Made by a program: the position numbers and the translations under genes
Part shown: piece after piece, positions 4,004 to 32,000 of the stretch
How positions within the stretch are numbered: position 1 is the first letter of the stretch
Layout of the letters: the number at the start of each line of letters is the position of its first letter
From: an archaeon
Lineage (GTDB): Archaea; Asgardarchaeota; Thorarchaeia; Thorarchaeales; Thorarchaeaceae
Direction of reading: 5' to 3'
Length of the DNA: 32,000 nucleotides
NCBI GenBank assembly: GCA_024275415.1
Contig: JAJRZD010000091.1
Location: forward strand, 1-32,000
The notes under the pieces: generated by a model
Database searches by the model: none
What the model was told of the DNA's origin: nothing
What the model saw: only the letters and a program-made list of their open reading frames with translations

Positions 4004-5239
4004 TTATCTTACTACGGCCAATGGCTGGTTGAGCAGATAGTCACTATCAGCTCTCCACTCATCATCTACGAAGTTCTCATGATAGAAGAAATATGTTCTT
4101 GATGCATCGAGTTGGAGTTGGAACACGCTGATTTCTTGGGCATGATTCCAGATTAACTCTGAAAGATCTGGGGCAACTGACGGTGGGGTTGTGCTATAAA
4201 TCAGAAATGTTCTTGTATCAGAAAAGACAGCGGTTTCGAATGGTAGCATTCCAGATTGAATGAAATGATGCAATGTGGTCGGCGTTAGTCCAGATTTCTT
4301 TTTGAACACACCATAAATCAGCTGAGGGTATGTGAGGTCGAATACCTGTCTATCGTAGTATAGGCGGTTTCTAGTGACGATATGTTCTCTGAGTCGTGAA
4401 ACTCTCCGCGACAATGTAGTGGCGTCCTTCTTGAAGTCTTCCGGCAACCGTGGGTTCTTGGCATACATCTCGCTTATCTTTGTCAGAACAGGTTTTGAGT
4501 TGATTGTAAGTTCCCTTAGGAGTTGCATGTCCAATTTATCGAACTGATATCTTTTCTTCGGCTGGATTTCGTGGATTTCGAAGTCGCCACTCGTGTCTAC
4601 AGACATTGTCCAGCTATCCTCAAGGTCGCTGGATTCCCTGACCGTTTTCAATTCTTCCCGTGGTCCCACTTGCCAGAGGTCTCTTTTCAGATCCCATCGT
4701 GTGAAGTTGGCATTACAGAGCGAAAAGTGGCGTTCATCAATAACGATGCTGTCGGTGCAAAGTCCCTGCATCTCAATTTCATCATAGAGCTTTCTCATGG
4801 GTGCACTTGCTTCCGGGGGGAGGTCGAACTGGATGTAGAGTGACGCTGATTGCCCATAGGCAGGAACTCGATAATGGGTATAGGGGTGTCTATCACATAT
4901 CGACCGGATCGTATCCAATGCATTCCTATCTGGAATCCCCTTCAAGACGACGTGTTGCCTAACAAGTCCGAGTGAGGTCTGTTGATATACGCCGTTTGCT
5001 TCTGTCTGCAGACGGGCTCCAAGGATCGGATCTTCAATGGTTCGATTGGCCCTGAGAAACCCTTTCTCTTTCATTGCCATTATCCTTGAACGAACTGCCT
5101 CTGATGATAGATTGACCTTGCGACCGATGGACGCATTGCTTTGGAGGGGGTTTTCTTTCAGATTCAAGAATATCTCATAGTCTTTCAGGTCTAGCCCATA
5201 TGCCCTCCAATTTACCATTCTTTTCACTATTCCTCGCAT
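4004..5239 (-). CDS. Large Lrp/AsnC-like transcriptional regulator with two HTH + effector-like modules
   Basis: N-terminal HTH (LKENPLQSNASIGRKVNLSSEAVRSRIMAMKEKG) and a second HTH-like unit (FDKLDMQLLRELTINSK...TLSRRVSRLRE), each followed by an alpha/beta segment. Confidence 0.7.
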   Translation of the reverse strand: MRGIVKRMVNWRAYGLDLKDYEIFLNLKENPLQSNASIGRKVNLSSEAVRSRIMAMKEKGFLRANRTIEDPILGARLQTEANGVYQQTSLGLVRQHVVLKGIPDRNALDTIRSICDRHPYTHYRVPAYGQSASLYIQFDLPPEASAPMRKLYDEIEMQGLCTDSIVIDERHFSLCNANFTRWDLKRDLWQVGPREELKTVRESSDLEDSWTMSVDTSGDFEIHEIQPKKRYQFDKLDMQLLRELTINSKPVLTKISEMYAKNPRLPEDFKKDATTLSRRVSRLREHIVTRNRLYYDRQVFDLTYPQLIYGVFKKKSGLTPTTLHHFIQSGMLPFETAVFSDTRTFLIYSTTPPSVAPDLSELIWNHAQEISVFQLQLDASRTYFFYHENFVDDEWRADSDYLLNQPLAVVR

Positions 5240-5957: not shown

Positions 5958-7799
5958 ATGAAAAGACGAGAGAGATTGATGCTCGTTAGTGCAATGATAT
6001 TGCCCTTGTTATGTCTTGGAGCCTTCACAGCTCCCGCAAGTGCAGTACCATTGAGCGGGCAAAATTACTTAGATGTAATCATCTTCTTCAATCCTGGCAT
6101 CACTGTCAATTTACAGGATGTTACAGTAACTCACGAATACACGGCATTGAATGGTATAGCAGCCAGAATCCCTGAATCCATGTACAGCGTTCTTGAAAAC
6201 TCGTGGTTTGTAGATTCAATATCACTTGACTCTGTACATACCATGTCACAGGACACACTTGATTGGGGTGTCGATGATGTGAACGCAGAACGTGTCTGGG
6301 GCGGTGCTGAGGATGCCGTAGATGTTGTGGCAGGCAATGTTGCAGGCAATGGTGTCAAAGTGGCTATTATTGACACTGGTATTGACTATACGCACCCAGA
6401 GTTGGATGGGGTATATGCGGGTGGTTATGACTTTGTAAACGGTGACAATGATCCAAAGGATGACAATGGACATGGAACCCATGTTGCTGGAATCGTTGCC
6501 GCTGAGGACAATGGTGTAGGTGTGATTGGTGTCGCACCACAGGCATCGATATATGCCCTCAAAGTTCTCAACGCACAGGGTTCTGGTTACACTAGTGACA
6601 TTATTGCAGCTGTTGATTGGTCTGTTAACAATAACATGGATGTCATATCCATGAGCCTTGGTGGTGGAGGTTATGACTCTGCCTTCGACGCAGCTATTGA
6701 TCGTGCTTACAATGCTGGTATCGTTGTCGTTGCCGCATCTGGAAACGATGGCACTGGAACAATATCCTACCCAGCAGCATATACCAATGCAATTGCTGTA
6801 GGTGCGATTGATGCCAATCACAACCTTGCAAGTTTCAGCAATTGGGGTCCTGAACAAGAGGTCGTGGCTCCAGGCGTGAACATTTACAGCACGATGCCCA
6901 CCTATACTGTGACACTCAACACACTGTATGGATACAGCCAAAACTACGATCAGATGAGTGGCACATCAATGGCAACTCCGATTGTCAGTGGAACCGTTGC
7001 ATTGATTCTGTCAGCCAATCCTTCGCTAACCCCTGCAGAAGTCCGTGACATTCTACACACAACCTCACGAGACCTTGGCGCAGCTGGTTGGGATCAGTCA
7101 TATGGCTGGGGTGCTGTTGAAGCTGAAGCTGCTGTAGCAGCAGCTGGTGGAACTCCTGGTGATAATCCTCCATCATGCACCATCGCAGATCCAGCGGCAG
7201 GTGCTACTGTTTCAGGCACCTATCGAGTGCTTGTTTCAGCAAGTGATGACAACTCAGTTTCCAAGGTAGAGGTCAACATTGATGGAGCTGCATGGATTGA
7301 CATCACAGCTAATTTCGATGGTACATACTACTTCTACGACTGGGACACAACAGCCTACACTGATGGCTCCCACACAGTGAATGCCCGAGCTACTGATTCG
7401 GCCGGTCAGACTGCCACTGACAGCAATGGAGTCACTGTTAACAATGGTGGTGGCGCAGCAGATACCATGCATGTCGCCTCGATTGATATGTGGTATGAAA
7501 CTGTTCGATGGTGGTTCTGGGTCATTGGCTATGATGTCTACATCAAGGTCACTGTACATGATGGACTTAGTACCGCTCTAGCTGGCGTCACTGTCAGCAT
7601 AGATCTGGCATTACCAAGTGGTGGCATTGCGAGTGGCACAGCAGATACTGGAGCTGATGGTACAGTCACATTTGTCTATGAGGCAGCCTCGTACGAAACA
7701 GGTACATATGTTGCCACAGTCACGAATTTGGCGAAAACAGGTTATACCTACGTACCATCTGACAACATAGAAACCTCTGAATCACTTGTAGTTCCTTAG
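5958..7799 (+). CDS. Secreted S8 subtilisin-family serine protease with propeptide and two C-terminal Ig-like domains
   Basis: Catalytic triad motifs IIDTGID, HGTHVAG and GTSMATP, with a signal peptide. GGTGA RBS lies before ATG 5958. Confidence 0.97.
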   Translation: MKRRERLMLVSAMILPLLCLGAFTAPASAVPLSGQNYLDVIIFFNPGITVNLQDVTVTHEYTALNGIAARIPESMYSVLENSWFVDSISLDSVHTMSQDTLDWGVDDVNAERVWGGAEDAVDVVAGNVAGNGVKVAIIDTGIDYTHPELDGVYAGGYDFVNGDNDPKDDNGHGTHVAGIVAAEDNGVGVIGVAPQASIYALKVLNAQGSGYTSDIIAAVDWSVNNNMDVISMSLGGGGYDSAFDAAIDRAYNAGIVVVAASGNDGTGTISYPAAYTNAIAVGAIDANHNLASFSNWGPEQEVVAPGVNIYSTMPTYTVTLNTLYGYSQNYDQMSGTSMATPIVSGTVALILSANPSLTPAEVRDILHTTSRDLGAAGWDQSYGWGAVEAEAAVAAAGGTPGDNPPSCTIADPAAGATVSGTYRVLVSASDDNSVSKVEVNIDGAAWIDITANFDGTYYFYDWDTTAYTDGSHTVNARATDSAGQTATDSNGVTVNNGGGAADTMHVASIDMWYETVRWWFWVIGYDVYIKVTVHDGLSTALAGVTVSIDLALPSGGIASGTADTGADGTVTFVYEAASYETGTYVATVTNLAKTGYTYVPSDNIETSESLVVP

Positions 7800-23928: not shown

Positions 23929-24414
23929 GTGGAGGAAGTCATCATCAGATTCCGGACGACAAACGGGCTTGAGCAAAGCCGTGTTCTATCCGTCCATGAG
24001 AGCGCGTTGAACTTAGACCTTCGGAATATAGCAGAGATTGACTTGCTCCCACTCGTCTGGTGCAGCAAACTTGAACGACTGTCTATTCGCTATAATCATC
24101 TTGTTGAGATAGATCTCTCCCCACTCAGTAAATGTGTGAGTCTTGAAGTACTGCATCTCAATCATAATGAACTAGTAAAAGTGGATCTCCACCCTCTAAG
24201 TGACTGTCCCCATCTTCGAGAGGTGGATTTGAGAAACAACCACCTATCGAGTGTTGACATCTCACCTTTGTTCCACTGCTCAGAACTGGAAACTTTGCTT
24301 TTGGATGATGATGTGACCTTGACTGCTGACCTCCTACTCCGCTCGATTGGTAGTTGGCCCGATGTCCTAGTAGGCTTGTTTCATCGGATTCTCTGGAAAT
24401 CATCTCATATGTAG
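23929..24414 (+). CDS. Leucine-rich repeat protein
   Basis: About four 24-aa repeats of the form [IV]DLxPLxxCxxLExLxLxxNxLxx. GGAGG RBS before a GTG start. Confidence 0.9.
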   Translation: MEEVIIRFRTTNGLEQSRVLSVHESALNLDLRNIAEIDLLPLVWCSKLERLSIRYNHLVEIDLSPLSKCVSLEVLHLNHNELVKVDLHPLSDCPHLREVDLRNNHLSSVDISPLFHCSELETLLLDDDVTLTADLLLRSIGSWPDVLVGLFHRILWKSSHM

Positions 24415-27223: not shown

Positions 27224-27321
27224 TATGACAACATTGCAAAGATTTCCACAATCGGACAAAGGTGCCTACAACGACCTCTCTTAACGAAAGATGATATATG
27301 CAGGGAAGCCTTTGATTCTAT

Positions 27322-28911
27322 GTGAGCCCGATGGTTAGTCACTCTCTTGAAGCGATTATGATAATTGACCGGAGTGGTACTCCGCGTTTCTATATGCAAC
27401 TCGATCCCAGGGCTTTCGATTTGGATCCGGTTCTTGGGTCAAGCTTCTTCGCAGCCATAGACATGTTCTCTGAGCAGATACTCGAGCAGAGTACACCTGT
27501 GTTCCAAGTTGATTATGGCGCTAGGATTTTCACGATTATCCACGGCGTTGAAACGAACTTGGTTGCAGTGTGTAGTCGCAGACCTGATGATGAAACCTTG
27601 GACATCCTTGACTCGTTGCTTGCCGAGTTTGAGCTCGAGTGGATTCCAGCTGCAGAGTCCTTTGAATTCGATGACTCGTTCATGGAAGTCTACTTGGAAT
27701 CTTTTGGTGAGCGTGTTCTTGACAGACTAGCATTCCAAGAGATTCCTGGTTCTTGGGTTCCCTATCTGACCGAAAAGTCCGACTCCATGCAACCAATGGG
27801 GAGTGCAATCCTTTCTTACATCAATGGTTCCCGAAGTGTCAAAGAGATTAGCGAGTTAAGCGGCATCACGCATAAGGAACTTCTAGTGGAAATGTCAAAG
27901 CTGTGGGCACATCGCGTCATCAGGTTTCGCAATATGCTTAGCTTCAAGGACTTCTTGAGTGCCCGTTCAAGCTTTCTACGATACACGCAGGCAACTTCAG
28001 TCGAGGTGCAAGATTTGATGAATGCTCATCCTGAGATGGTCACAATCATCCCTCGATTGGCTGGGCTAATCGATGGGAGGCGCACCGTGAAGGAGATCCT
28101 CGATGAGCTTGGGAACCAATATGATGAGCGTGAGATTCTACGAGTCCTCGATTATCTACGGGAAACAGAGGTCATTGAGGTGCTGACCTCCGAGAAACGA
28201 AGAATACTCCTCGCAAAGGAATTGCTGGAAATATCACTTCGAACAGCTGAGGAAATCTATGGCCCTCGCGACACCTCAACCATTCTGAAAAGCATCTTGA
28301 ATCGTGTGTCTGCTCCTGAAACAATCGGTCAGCTACAACTTAAAGACGGTCGATGGTCGGTCGATTTCGATTTCAAGGCTCTTGACGGCACTCCACCAAA
28401 ACGACTGATGACAATGTATGGCGAATGGATGAAGATACTGGCCCAATTCGCTGCTGGGCTGGATCGCAAACAACTAGACCCGTTCATCGATTCCCTCAGC
28501 CAGAAACTATCATCTCACATACTCGATCGATATTCCAACTTTGATCTTAGAGGGTTGGAAGAGTTCTCGTTCTGGCTTGAGCATCTGGGAACTGAAGGCT
28601 GGCCAAAAGTCCAGATTGATAGGACATACCCCCTTGAGCGAATCGACAATAGTGCACTCGAAGATGTAGTACACACACTTATCGAGCGTGGGCAATCGAT
28701 ATACGGGTCTGAGTTGATAGTTGGTATTGCCGGATCTGCTGGAATCCCTCTTGTAGATGGACTGCCTGTCAGTCGTGTTGAAGGGGGTCGAATCGAGTCT
28801 TTCAAGCGGTTCCTGATTGCCTATTCCACTCTTGGAGTCGCTGCCAAACTCACACTCCTTATCATATCGCGACAACGAGGTGTCCCTCTCCCCAAGGAGA
28901 TTGCCCTCTAG
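27322..28911 (+). CDS. Longin-like domain + tandem winged-helix (NPRL2-like) protein
   Basis: N-terminal beta-beta-alpha-beta-beta-beta-alpha pattern (MIIDRSGTPRFY...LGSSFFAAIDMFSEQI...FQVDYGARIFTIIHG...LVAVC), two [DN]GxR[ST]VKEI wHTH repeats and an unknown helical C-terminus. The start is GTG 27322 or ATG 27331. Confidence 0.75.
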   Translation: MSPMVSHSLEAIMIIDRSGTPRFYMQLDPRAFDLDPVLGSSFFAAIDMFSEQILEQSTPVFQVDYGARIFTIIHGVETNLVAVCSRRPDDETLDILDSLLAEFELEWIPAAESFEFDDSFMEVYLESFGERVLDRLAFQEIPGSWVPYLTEKSDSMQPMGSAILSYINGSRSVKEISELSGITHKELLVEMSKLWAHRVIRFRNMLSFKDFLSARSSFLRYTQATSVEVQDLMNAHPEMVTIIPRLAGLIDGRRTVKEILDELGNQYDEREILRVLDYLRETEVIEVLTSEKRRILLAKELLEISLRTAEEIYGPRDTSTILKSILNRVSAPETIGQLQLKDGRWSVDFDFKALDGTPPKRLMTMYGEWMKILAQFAAGLDRKQLDPFIDSLSQKLSSHILDRYSNFDLRGLEEFSFWLEHLGTEGWPKVQIDRTYPLERIDNSALEDVVHTLIERGQSIYGSELIVGIAGSAGIPLVDGLPVSRVEGGRIESFKRFLIAYSTLGVAAKLTLLIISRQRGVPLPKEIAL

Positions 28912-28975
28912 CGTCAGGTTATGACAATGGTTATCAGAGGGCTCTCCCTTGTTAGTCTTGCAAAGGTGTTAGCTC

Positions 28976-29497
28976 ATGAGCCCATCATACCTTCTCAAGC
29001 TGGTCACTGTAGGTTCCGCCTCGGTGGGTAAGACGAGCATGATCATCCGTTACTCCACAGGGACATTTCGTGAGCATTACTCTCCCACACTAGGCACTGG
29101 TTTCTCATATAAGAAACTACAAACCAATGGCAACTTCGTGACGCTTCAAATCTGGGACATGGGCTCTCAAGACTTCCTTGAGCGTGTCCGATCCAACTAT
29201 TACATTGGGACACAAGGTGTCCTCATCGTCTTTGATGTGACAAGCTGGGAGTCATACAATGATGTCATCGAATGGAAGAACGAAGTTGATAGGAACCTAG
29301 AGGAACCCTGTCCTGCTATTCTCATTGGGAACAAGATCGACCTTGCTGTTGACCGCGTGGTGTCTACTGAGGAGGGACAGATGCTCGCCTCACAGATGGG
29401 CATGGATTATCTAGAAACTTCAGTTCTTATGAATAATAACGTCAACGAAGCCTTTGAGATGATTGCAAAGAAGATCATTCAGTCCTTCGAACTCTGA
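28976..29497 (+). CDS. Ras-superfamily (Rab-like) small GTPase
   Basis: G1 GSASVGKT, G2 PTLG, G3 WDMGSQ, G4 NKID, G5 ETSV. No C-terminal Cys prenylation motif. Confidence 0.95.
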   Translation: MSPSYLLKLVTVGSASVGKTSMIIRYSTGTFREHYSPTLGTGFSYKKLQTNGNFVTLQIWDMGSQDFLERVRSNYYIGTQGVLIVFDVTSWESYNDVIEWKNEVDRNLEEPCPAILIGNKIDLAVDRVVSTEEGQMLASQMGMDYLETSVLMNNNVNEAFEMIAKKIIQSFEL

Positions 29498-29516
29498 AGG
29501 CTCAATAGTTTTGAGC

Positions 29517-31277
29517 CTACGTGGACATAGCGCGTTTCTTCAACTCCATTTCTCGCAATACTCGCCTGAGTACTTTCCCGACATTGCTCATTGGGAGTTC
29601 GTCAACAAACTCCACTTCTTTGGGTCTCTTATATCCCGCCATCCGCGGTCTGCACCATTCGATGATCTCCTTCTCGGTGGCGGTTTCTCCTTCCTTCAGG
29701 ACGATGAATGCCTTTGGGTACTCGTTTGACGGTTCGTCCTCACGAGGAAGTCCGACGACAGAAGCAATCTTCACTTTCGGGTGCCCAAAGAGAACATCCT
29801 CGATCTCACGCGGGTATGCCTTGAGACCTCCAACGTTGATCATCGCCTTCTTCCTATCACTAATGTACGTGTATCCGAGACCATCCATATGCCCTATGTC
29901 CCCTGTGAGGAAGTAGCGTTTTTCATCAATCTCACGCATGACGTTCTCCGTTTCATCAGGCTTGTTATAATATCCCTTCATGACCTGTGGGCCGTGGATT
30001 GCAATCTCGCCTATTTCCCCGATGGGCATCTCGTTGGTTCCAGTTTCAACATCAACAATTTTGCAGATAGTGTCCGATACCGGCAATCCTATCGATCCGA
30101 ACTTCCGGAATCGTCTGTTAGTCGGATTGATATGAGTGACAGGTGAGGTTTCCGTGAGACCATACCCCTCGAACAGCAATGCGCCAGTGACAGCCTCGAA
30201 GTTTTTTGCCAGCTCAGGAGGCAATGGAGCTGCTCCTGAGCTACAAATCGTGATGGACGAAAGGTCATAGTCTTTCACGTTGGGGTGATTAGCAATGGCT
30301 GCATATAGTGCTGGGACACAATTCAAGACTGTTGCCTTGCTTTTCTCAATGTCCCGCAAGAGGTCTGACAGGGGTGGGTCGCCTGACCTCGGATCTGGTA
30401 TGCAAACAAGCTGTCCCGCATACCAAACCGACATGAGCAACGTGAGTGTAAGCCCATAGCTGTGATACCATGGTACAGCCCCACAGAAGACCTCCTCACC
30501 ATGGCGTATTCGTCCTGGTGGGTGCGGTGCTGCATCCTCTTCGTCAAGAAACACCCACTCACTGATCTGAAGGATGTTGGAAATCAGATTCATGTGCGTC
30601 AGTTCCGCTCCTTTTGGAGTGCCCGTAGTCCCTCCTGTGTATATGAGGACCGCAGTATCATCTGGGTTCACGGTTATTGTCGGAGCGGTTGGATCATGCT
30701 CTGACACTACTTTGTGATAGAAGAATGTCTTGTCCTCTTCATAGTATGGACTTTTTGGCACCATTCCAAGCAACCCTCCGATTGCTGCTTTAACTTTCGG
30801 CAAGAACGGCTTGAGGTTGCAGACGATGACTGTGTCGACCTGTGTCCCTTTGATTGCTTCGTAGCATGTGGGCGTGAAGACAGGATGATCGAGCACAAAA
30901 ACTGCAGTCGCTCCTGTATCTGTGAGTTGGTGGTTCAGTTCACCTGCCTTGTAGAGTGGGTTACAGGTCACAACCCTTGCACCTGCTTTCAGTGCCCCGA
31001 AGAATGCCACCGGAAAATGAGGTACATTCGGTAGGAACACTGCGACAACATCACCCTCCTTGATGCCGCGCTTGTTCAGAAATGCAGCAACACGGTTAGC
31101 GTCATCTCGCATCTCTCTATATGTTCTTGTCTGTCCCATGAACCATGTGAACGGCAGATGACCACTTTTGTCGGCCGCTCTGTCTAGCATCGCAAACAGC
31201 GGCTCCCTTGGATAGTCAAGAGATTTCCGAGCGCTCTTTGGCCATGCAGCGCCATCTTGCCAGAATAAATCACCCAA
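29517..31277 (-). CDS. Long-chain-fatty-acid--CoA ligase (ANL adenylating enzyme)
   Basis: YTGGTTGTPKG, EGYGLTETSP, TGDIG, YPREIED and GKVLRR motifs. Confidence 0.95.
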   Translation of the reverse strand: MGDLFWQDGAAWPKSARKSLDYPREPLFAMLDRAADKSGHLPFTWFMGQTRTYREMRDDANRVAAFLNKRGIKEGDVVAVFLPNVPHFPVAFFGALKAGARVVTCNPLYKAGELNHQLTDTGATAVFVLDHPVFTPTCYEAIKGTQVDTVIVCNLKPFLPKVKAAIGGLLGMVPKSPYYEEDKTFFYHKVVSEHDPTAPTITVNPDDTAVLIYTGGTTGTPKGAELTHMNLISNILQISEWVFLDEEDAAPHPPGRIRHGEEVFCGAVPWYHSYGLTLTLLMSVWYAGQLVCIPDPRSGDPPLSDLLRDIEKSKATVLNCVPALYAAIANHPNVKDYDLSSITICSSGAAPLPPELAKNFEAVTGALLFEGYGLTETSPVTHINPTNRRFRKFGSIGLPVSDTICKIVDVETGTNEMPIGEIGEIAIHGPQVMKGYYNKPDETENVMREIDEKRYFLTGDIGHMDGLGYTYISDRKKAMINVGGLKAYPREIEDVLFGHPKVKIASVVGLPREDEPSNEYPKAFIVLKEGETATEKEIIEWCRPRMAGYKRPKEVEFVDELPMSNVGKVLRRVLREMELKKRAMST

Positions 31278-31435: not shown

Positions 31436-31470
31436 AAAAAAAGAAGGGGACGAGGGAAACATTCTCCCTC
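31436..31470 (-). terminator. Hairpin + T7 after the second acyl-CoA ligase
   Basis: GAGGGA-N7-TCCCTC (31452-31470); on the minus strand it is followed by CCCCTTCTTTTTTT. Confidence 0.55.
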
Positions 31471-32000
31471 TATGCCATTCCCCGTTTCTTCAACTCCGCC
31501 GCGCGAAGCTCGCGCCTGAGAACCTTGCCTACCTGACTCAGGGGCAGCTCATTCACGAACTCCACTTCCTTGGGGCGCTTGTATCCCGCCATCTTGTCCT
31601 TTGCCCACGCAATGAACTCGTCTTCGGTGGCGGTTTCCCCGTCCTTCAGAACGATAAACGCCTTCACATATTCGTTGCTCGGATCGTCTTTTCTCGGAAG
31701 TCCAATCACTGCCGCCATCTTTACCTTCGGGTGTGTGAAGAAGATGTCTTCTATCTCCCGTGGGTATGCCTTCAAGCCACCTACGTTTACCATGTCTTTC
31801 TTGCGGTCAGATATAACAAAGTAGCCCTCTTCATCCATATGACCGATGTCGCCCGTGAGGAAGAAGCGTTTCCCGTCTATCTCGCGCATGACGTTCTCTG
31901 TTTCCTCGGGTTTGTTATAGTAGCCCATCATGACCTGGGGGCCATGAACCGCAATCTCTCCTGTTTCTCCCGGAGGAAGAACCTTCGTTCCTGTTTCGAC
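31470..32000 (-). CDS. Long-chain-fatty-acid--CoA ligase paralog, 5' end outside the window
   Basis: The open frame extends to base 32000 (VETGTKVLPPGETGEIAVHGPQVMMGYY...TGDIG...DRKKDM...GKVLRR) and is highly similar to the neighbouring ligase. Confidence 0.95.
   Translation of the reverse strand, partial: VETGTKVLPPGETGEIAVHGPQVMMGYYNKPEETENVMREIDGKRFFLTGDIGHMDEEGYFVISDRKKDMVNVGGLKAYPREIEDIFFTHPKVKMAAVIGLPRKDDPSNEYVKAFIVLKDGETATEDEFIAWAKDKMAGYKRPKEVEFVNELPLSQVGKVLRRELRAAELKKRGMA

Follow-up and report, generated by a model that had tools for sequence, protein, structure and literature searches.

A Thorarchaeota gene pair encoding an NPRL2-like longin protein and a Rab-like GTPase as a candidate regulator-GTPase module

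NPRL2, FLCN, SMCR8 and the bacterial protein MglB promote GTP hydrolysis. In human NPRL2 the catalytic arginine finger is Arg78, located on a loop of the longin domain, and MglB is a GTPase-activating protein (GAP) that works without supplying an arginine finger. Asgard genomes hold dozens of small GTPases together with longin and roadblock proteins, and the matches between these regulators and the GTPases are mostly unassigned. In a cultured Loki strain the GTPase genes are generally not found in operons with longin or roadblock genes, so that matching them is hard (Tran et al., PMC10933270). NPRL2-like proteins were found by Liu et al. (bioRxiv 10.1101/2020.10.19.343400; Nature 2021) in most Thor metagenome-assembled genomes (MAGs). 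Here, we describe a locus from a stretch of 32,000 nucleotides (nt) of Thorarchaeota DNA, referred to as the window (assembly GCA_024275415.1, contig JAJRZD010000091.1, positions 1 to 32,000 of the forward strand), in which a gene encoding an NPRL2-like longin protein is followed by a gene encoding a Rab-like small GTPase. The locus combines a multi-part domain anatomy and homology to NPRL2 in the first protein with a Rab-like partner carrying a D-x-G-S-Q switch II, and the two genes show a two-way linkage with co-duplication. We consider it rather probable that they constitute a self-contained two-gene module of Thorarchaeota, in which the NPRL2-like protein is the regulator of the cognate GTPase encoded after it. 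The overall reading of an earlier note, made from the sequence alone, of an NPRL2-like longin protein with a dedicated Rab-like GTPase is supported by these data.

That note had described a protein of 529 amino acids (aa) encoded 64 nt upstream of a small GTPase on the same strand, and both open reading frames (ORFs) and the gap are exactly as claimed. The 529-aa ORF opens with GTG 27322 and is located at 27322..28911 (+), the 173-aa GTPase ORF is located at 28976..29497 (+), and the 64 nt between them comprise 28912-28975. The likely start of the NPRL2-like gene is ATG 27331 rather than GTG 27322, because the homologues and an identical database protein of 526 aa begin at Met4 of the 529-aa ORF, which places the gene at 27331..28911 (+). 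Searches of the large protein against Pfam and NCBIfam returned nothing above cut-off and only sub-threshold matches to PqqD, DUF433 and HTH_NPRL3. A confident AlphaFold2 (AF2) model was built from 34 homologues, with a predicted local distance difference test score (pLDDT) of 81.6 and a predicted TM-score (pTM) of 0.77. Residues 6-141 (27337..27744, +) form a longin domain with the topology beta-beta-alpha-beta-beta-beta-alpha-alpha, in agreement with the longin-like N-terminus recognized earlier. In VIA-align this domain reaches Z 10-12.2 over 113-129 aligned residues, and the matches comprise COPI zeta and delta, TRAPP subunits of the Tca17, sedlin and Bet5 type, adaptin (AP) sigma and mu, and Sec22b, the longins of TRAPP, adaptin sigma/mu, COPI zeta and Sec22b lying at Z 10-12. 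The domain also matches MglB (Z ~10), a Lokiarchaeota longin with an experimental structure, and Fuzzy, a component of the Rab23 complex Fuzzy-Inturned (CPLANE).

Homology to NPRL2 was seen in the region following the longin domain, which contains two winged helices. The first one, together with a preceding WVP motif (WVPYLTEK at residue 145), spans residues 145-215 (27754..27966, +) and was delimited by profile alignment to NPRL2 151-253 and by the secondary structure of the model, while the second one spans residues 227-288 (28000..28185, +), aligns by profile to NPRL2 254-328 and is a repeat of the first. The I-x-G-S-R motif of winged helix 1, YINGSRSVKEISE, is located at residue 166 (nt 27817), and the I-D-G-R-R-T-V motif of winged helix 2, LIDGRRTVKEILDE, at residue 249 (nt 28066). 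An internal duplication at exactly these two motifs had been proposed from the sequence and is borne out: the two motif regions align with each other in BLASTP (E 0.002; 9/20 residues identical), and both repeats are winged helices in AF2 models. Comparing a profile of the Thor members with the PDB gave NPRL2 as the best sequence (E 0.0027) over the V-P...I-D-G-x-R stretch. A broader Asgard profile, in which the Thor members were combined with divergent Loki-, Hod- and Heimdall-type members from an exhaustive search, matched human NPRL2 at E 3e-7 along 166 positions (120-285 against NPRL2 151-328), with the next match at E 0.03. This alignment spans both winged helices, and the I-D-G-x-R motif occurs in NPRL2 itself. 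The sequence evidence for NPRL2 homology, obtained with these profiles, is independent of the structure models.

The structural comparisons gave a similar picture. In a Foldseek search with the whole model, the first 13 places were all taken by NPRL2, NPRL3, Npr2 and Npr3 chains of GATOR1/SEACIT (E 3e-6 to 3e-3; ~345 aligned columns). Since the longin domain by itself might drive such a whole-model result, and since it dominated the whole-model VIA alignment, residues 138-426 were folded alone (pLDDT 90.5) and compared, by a search other than Foldseek, with 48,161 PDB representative chains. Human NPRL2 came first (Z 8.6, 166 residues, root-mean-square deviation 5.7) and yeast Npr2 second (Z 8.4, 167 residues); these two were the sole multi-domain matches of the post-longin fragment, and the lower ranks were single winged-helix matches, for example of the RRE/PqqD type. 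With Foldseek, the same fragment gave NPRL2/Npr2 in places 1-7. The post-longin region is hence NPRL2-like, as had been suggested in the earlier note for its first unit, and this holds across both winged helices. This also means that the second winged helix-turn-helix, regarded there as a possible distinguishing feature, does not set the architecture apart, because the NPRL2 alignment covers both winged helices and NPRL2 has a second one, too. A DENN-like part, which the note had suggested as well, was not seen, the post-longin part consisting of winged helices and helices; the structural matches listed for the post-longin fragment included no chain of DENN, FLCN or SMCR8, and a distant similarity may remain.

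Winged helices might also imply that the protein binds DNA or peptides, either as a transcription factor or in the manner of PqqD/RRE-type domains, and that the adjacency to the GTPase reflects co-regulation only. Winged helix 2 indeed matches RRE domains with Z 7.8, and the region of this helix gives sub-threshold matches to PqqD (Pfam PF05402, E 0.0031; NCBIfam TIGR03859, E 1.4e-7) as well as to HTH_NPRL3, the latter being found below threshold in 6/34 members. However, all these matches stay below the curated cut-offs, with 18.2 bits against 23.4 for PF05402 and 31.3 against 46 for TIGR03859, and the I-D-G-x-R motif is shared with NPRL2. Genes for ribosomally synthesized and post-translationally modified peptides (RiPPs) or for pyrroloquinoline quinone (PQQ) are not present nearby, the neighbors instead encoding an acyl-CoA synthetase, a YdjM-like membrane protein and a hexapeptide transferase, and the strict two-way linkage and the co-duplication described below argue for a relationship between proteins. 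A PqqD/RRE function was rejected on account of the motif common to NPRL2 and of the gene context, which does not fit, and we regard DNA or peptide binding as extremely improbable.

The second gene encodes a Rab-like small GTPase of 173 aa (28976..29497, +), as had been read from the sequence. Pfam Ras matches it with E 5.5e-48 over 161/162 positions, and its best solved relatives in the PDB are Rab35, Rab1 and Ypt1 (E ~1e-37 to 1e-35). A solved Thorarchaeota Rab is no closer than these three and is therefore not the orthologue of the window GTPase. Matches to the Pfam families Arf and Gtr1_RagA are far weaker than that to Ras, Gtr1_RagA (3.4e-4) being below cut-off. The protein carries the P-loop GSASVGKT (29012-29035), a switch II reading W-D-M-G-S-Q (29153-29170) and the motif N-K-I-D (29330-29341); it contains neither a C-terminal Cys nor the canonical D-T-A-G-Q switch II. 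A comparison of 35 linked GTPases showed conservation of the P-loop, of Thr38, of N-K-x-D and of Gln65, the last being invariant, and a switch II reading W-D-[LM]-G-S-Q, in which Ser64 replaces the DxxG glycine with at least 90% conservation. Apart from one exception, which reads G-G-Q, this Ser is kept in the linked orthologues and paralogues, of which there are about 60, and it is found in 1/26 small GTPases of this genome, namely the window GTPase, being absent from the other 25. The nearest paralogue of the window GTPase in its own genome is 38% identical. Work on Ras and G-alpha established that the DxxG glycine is required for the GTP-driven rearrangement of switch II. Because the conserved Ser64 sits at this very glycine, it suggests an altered and possibly partner-dependent switching.

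The linkage of both genes was followed from either side. Among 77 related loci from species-representative genomes, 69 had enough downstream DNA to be judged; in 60 of them the GTPase gene, on the same strand, begins less than 300 nt downstream, and it lies 0.4-3.6 kb away in five more. Searching from the side of the GTPase revealed it in 58/81 genomes of the class and in 10/17 genera, and in all of the 29 fetched loci, which were the best matches in other genomes, an NPRL2-like gene ends 68-141 nt upstream of the GTPase. The dedicated unit that had been postulated thus gains support from both counts. Furthermore, a module with a short paralogue of the NPRL2-like gene (module B) keeps its own GTPase paralogue, which shows ~50% identity compared to 61-81% for the orthologues, and the retention of this GTPase paralogue indicates that the pair was duplicated as a unit. 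A typical module B is found at L055 5959-8180, a locus of a Thorarchaeota MAG, and consists of a ~420-aa NPRL2-like gene, an overlapping ~115-aa gene, and then a GTPase paralogue that is ~53% identical; the first two genes of this module correspond to one fused gene in the window.

NPRL2-like paralogues are present in this genome on contig C93, in other Thor genomes as module B, and as two copies flanking one Heimdall MAG locus. Two long (~526-aa) NPRL2-like copies per genome were observed as well in some Thorarchaeota (L012 and L036, both on CP070658.1; L013 and L030, in the same MAG), with a GTPase directly downstream of one copy only. On contig C93 (locus L083, 2359-4727) the NPRL2-like paralogue (412 aa, 35% identical) is followed first by an ODP gene and then by a stand-alone ~105-aa gene for a homologue of the C-terminal R-G-x-x-x-Y-G domain of the window protein, without a GTPase; the ODP-family protein is of the di-iron metallo-beta-lactamase fold (PF19583, E 9e-52). 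The same order of NPRL2-like gene, ODP gene and small-protein gene recurs at L084 1534-5224 in a Heimdall MAG; there, the three genes are succeeded by another NPRL2-like paralogue, and the next gene, on the opposite strand, is of the MCP-signal type. This recurrent order suggests a sensor-coupled NPRL2-like module.

Behind the winged helices, the earlier note had assumed an unknown helical C-terminus of roughly 230 aa. It is helical as stated but not a single unit, as it is composed of a helical domain occurring family-wide and an add-on of ~100 aa that is a separate gene elsewhere. The helical domain, residues 290-426 (28189..28599, +), is modeled with a pLDDT of ~90 or higher in the fragment model and is conserved throughout the family; in all members it opens with an invariant E-K-R-R-I-L-L (R293, R294), and it contains a beta hairpin at residues 338-347. 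It lies partly within the structural alignment to NPRL2/Npr2 (protein residues 138-417 against NPRL2 166-375) and gave no convincing fold match beyond this partial alignment. The add-on four-helix domain, residues 432-529 (28615..28908, +), was delimited by domain alignment and by the separate ORFs in paralogous modules. It is missing from the ~413-424-aa paralogues and encoded by a stand-alone gene of ~105-115 aa in paralogous modules, such as in L055, where a separate ~115-aa gene at 7256-7603 overlaps the end of the regulator gene and lies between regulator and GTPase, and likewise in C93 (about 4410-4727) of the same genome and in the Heimdall MAG L084. As the small protein is fused to the regulator in the window gene, a Rosetta-stone argument suggests that it binds NPRL2-like proteins. 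A profile of residues 432-529 found nothing below E 0.25 in the PDB and nothing consistent in Pfam, and an Atlas feature search gave only unnamed clusters at 0.87. The domain contains an invariant R-G-Q-x-I-Y-G motif with R456 at nt 28687. This Arg was considered as an arginine finger acting in trans; it is, however, conserved also in modules without a linked GTPase, so that a structural role is no less likely.

These additional domains bear on the question whether the protein is a regulator at all. It could be an effector or scaffold that binds the GTP-form of the GTPase and relays the signal to further partners via the winged helices, the helical domain and the accessory domain, given that ~390/526 residues lie outside of the longin domain and are well conserved and that relatives of the family are linked to an ODP sensor and the small RG..YG protein instead of a GTPase. 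However, where the action of homologous or analogous longin and roadblock partners of small GTPases is understood, it is on the nucleotide cycle, and the altered switch II strictly co-occurs with the NPRL2-like partner, which suggests a co-adaptation at the catalytic region. We judge an effector or scaffold to be clearly unlikely. According to the module reading that we prefer, the longin protein, which is probably a dimer as in other longin/roadblock platforms, would bind this one GTPase and would set its nucleotide state.

As to the direction in which this happens, we tentatively favor, at less than an even chance, a GAP-type role, in which the NPRL2-like protein would promote GTP hydrolysis without the arginine finger of NPRL2. 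This role is favored because the homology is to a GAP subunit, because a G-x-P motif seems to lie at the place of the GP motif, because the GTPase keeps its catalytic Gln, and because the MglA-MglB operon provides a precedent. Hydrolysis might be promoted by positioning of the GTPase's own Gln65 or by use of another conserved Arg, R293/R294 or R456. The motif in question, G19-x-P21, is located just before longin strand 2 or at its start. Its Gly and Pro reach at least 90% conservation in 41 divergent members and belong to the few positions conserved family-wide, although the motif reads G-x-P and not G-P. A GP motif before longin strand 2 was described as specific to GAP-type longins (PMC12290439), and G19-x-P21 appears to occupy its place.

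An arginine finger of the NPRL2 type was also considered. In a faithful GATOR1-like GAP, this finger could be R68 of the D-Y-G-A-R hairpin in the longin domain, which includes the conserved Y65-G66 and in which R68 is the most conserved longin Arg (Arg in 26/34 or 76% of the GTPase-linked members). However, the residue is His in 8/34 members in which the GTPase gene is nevertheless adjacent, and R68 was set aside as arginine finger for this reason. Moreover, by topology it lies in the beta3-beta4 hairpin, whereas the finger of NPRL2 would be expected in the beta4-beta5 loop beside the GP motif, and the genome, which is 92.9% complete, lacks a DEPDC5/IML1 match. A faithful GATOR1-like mechanism with R68 is accordingly very improbable.

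Several observations weigh against the reading that we prefer. The whole-model TM-score to NPRL2 is ~0.2 and the relative domain orientation differs from that in NPRL2, while the structural Z-scores of the C-terminal region are modest with 8.4-8.6. Pfam NPR2 (PF06218) gave no hmmscan match at E up to 10, and in a six-frame search of the 3.5-Mb genome the match at 27778-27873 reached 10.1 bits (E 0.35) compared to a cut-off of 27.5; still, the only two weak matches genome-wide fall on the window gene and its paralogue, which speaks for the NPRL2 homology. The longin domain contains no invariant Arg in the 34 GTPase-linked members and its beta4-beta5 loop no conserved Arg in the homologue alignment, so that the defining catalytic device of NPRL2 is not evident, and the search of the genome for IML1 (PF12257)/DEPDC5 returned no match. 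The partner is Rab-like and not Rag-like, and in eukaryotes the longin proteins that regulate Rabs are for the most part exchange factors. In a few Thor genomes (L012, L013, L073) there is another long copy that has no GTPase beside it, and the distant Loki- and Heimdall-type members and the C93 paralogue have neighbors other than a GTPase, which means that the NPRL2-like family is not exclusively a GTPase partner. Complex prediction for the full-length protein with the GTPase gave 0.59, 0.19 and 0.00 in its runs and was not used as evidence either way.

Some of these points lead to a different view, in which the protein would catalyze guanine-nucleotide exchange on the Rab-like GTPase as a longin-type exchange factor, comparable to the TRAPP, Mon1-Ccz1, DENN or Fuzzy-Inturned platforms, and not a GAP. 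The Rab-like partner, the TRAPP subunits among the closest longin folds, the match to Fuzzy and the apparent lack of a conserved arginine finger in the longin domain are in line with this, and longin domains are considered to act mainly as exchange-factor platforms in reviews (PMC10933270, PMC8534245), which we counted in its favor. On the other hand, the specific homology is to NPRL2, which is a GAP subunit, the G-x-P motif seems to take the position of the GP motif in GAP-type longins, and the prokaryotic operon precedent, MglA-MglB, is a GAP system. We therefore regard exchange activity as somewhat unlikely. What probability remains beyond the GAP-type role, exchange factor, and effector or scaffold belongs to something else.

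The GAP-type role could be extended to a working prokaryotic forerunner of longin GAP complexes, i.e., a true GAP in which the Gly-to-Ser change makes hydrolysis dependent on the partner, a device other than Arg78 is used, and the two modules yield a heterodimer. Catalysis would then come from a residue such as the invariant R293/R294 or the invariant Arg in the R-G-Q-x-I-Y-G domain that is fused here and forms a subunit of its own in the sister modules. Where a genome has both modules, their regulator/GTPase pairs could come together in a heterodimer of the NPRL2/NPRL3 kind that acts on two GTPases and prefigures GATOR1 with the Rag heterodimer. In this full form, the proposal is quite improbable.

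The surroundings of the pair are consistent with a unit of two genes, since the upstream neighbors (hexapeptide transferase, YdjM-like membrane protein, methyltransferase, SDR and leucine-rich repeat (LRR) protein) are unrelated to it and the gene downstream of the GTPase, an AMP-binding acyl-CoA synthetase, is convergent. Both genes are probably co-transcribed. No public sequencing run containing this DNA or its RNA was listed, which was not taken as evidence. An ATATAT at 27294..27299 (+), 32 nt before ATG 27331, was read from the sequence as a possible archaeal TATA box; if it were one, it would imply a near-leaderless transcript. The intergenic spacer of 64 nt (28912..28975, +) holds a Shine-Dalgarno-like AAGGTG (28963-28968) that ends 7 nt ahead of the ATG of the GTPase, and the orthologous loci retain a spacer, of 68-141 nt, as well. 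Right after the stop codon of the GTPase, between the convergent genes, a perfect 7-bp inverted repeat GGCTCAA/TTGAGCC (29499..29517) likely marks the end of the unit. The acyl-CoA synthetase downstream is one of two tandem AMP-binding paralogues, 29517-31277 (-) and 31470-32000 (-), with near-identical C-terminal sequences, the second of which runs past the end of the window. The LRR protein at 23929-24414 (+) has 161 aa and consists nearly entirely of leucine-rich repeats (LRR_4, 1.9e-15; LRR_8, 8e-13) with no other domain.

Concerning the significance of the locus, the genome layout supplies a match of the kind that is mostly unassigned in Asgard archaea: a single NPRL2-like protein goes together with a single Rab-like GTPase, their linkage holds both ways across most genera having them, and they were co-duplicated. 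Such a matched pair of two soluble proteins makes it possible to answer whether longins of the NPRL2 type acted on a GTPase cycle before eukaryotes, and whether as GAP or as exchange factor. Handles for mutagenesis are provided by the switch II with its conserved Gly-to-Ser change and by the R-G-Q-x-I-Y-G accessory domain, which is part of the regulator here and separate elsewhere. The cognate pair is useful and testable, while its novelty is incremental, as the protein family was already catalogued.

Compared with known systems, the coupling of a Rab-like GTPase to longin/roadblock regulators of eukaryotic type is shared with an Asgard operon encoding a LAMTOR1-like protein, a Rab-like GTPase and a DENN protein, which was described by Liu et al. 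In that operon, the regulators are DENN and a roadblock protein and not an NPRL2-like protein, and no DENN-like part was detected in the window protein. MglA-MglB of Myxococcus and Thermus likewise joins, in one prokaryotic operon, a small Ras-like GTPase to a partner of the roadblock/longin fold, and MglB matches the longin domain with Z ~10; however, MglB is a single roadblock domain of ~130-160 aa without winged helices, and MglA is not Rab-like. The NPRL2-like family of Liu et al. has a taxonomic spread that agrees with the spread seen here, and the window gene is almost certainly a member of this family. The available text of that account mentions neither a Rab-like GTPase beside the gene nor a module duplicated together with it, and it is silent on the Gly-to-Ser switch II and on the split or fused accessory domain. 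With NPRL2/Npr2, which together with NPRL3/Npr3 forms the core of GATOR1/SEACIT, the GAP for RagA/Gtr1, the window protein shares a longin domain at the N-terminus, tandem winged helices behind it with the V-P...I-D-G-x-R stretch, the pairing with a small GTPase and perhaps a Gly/Pro motif before longin strand 2. It differs in that the partner is Rab-like and lacks the C-terminal roadblock domain of the Rag type, that a conserved arginine finger is not evident in the window protein, that the genome gave no DEPDC5/IML1 match, and that Pfam NPR2 stays below cut-off. Beyond this, the window protein has an extra helical domain of ~135 aa and a fused accessory domain of ~100 aa, and the pair is encoded in a putative operon.

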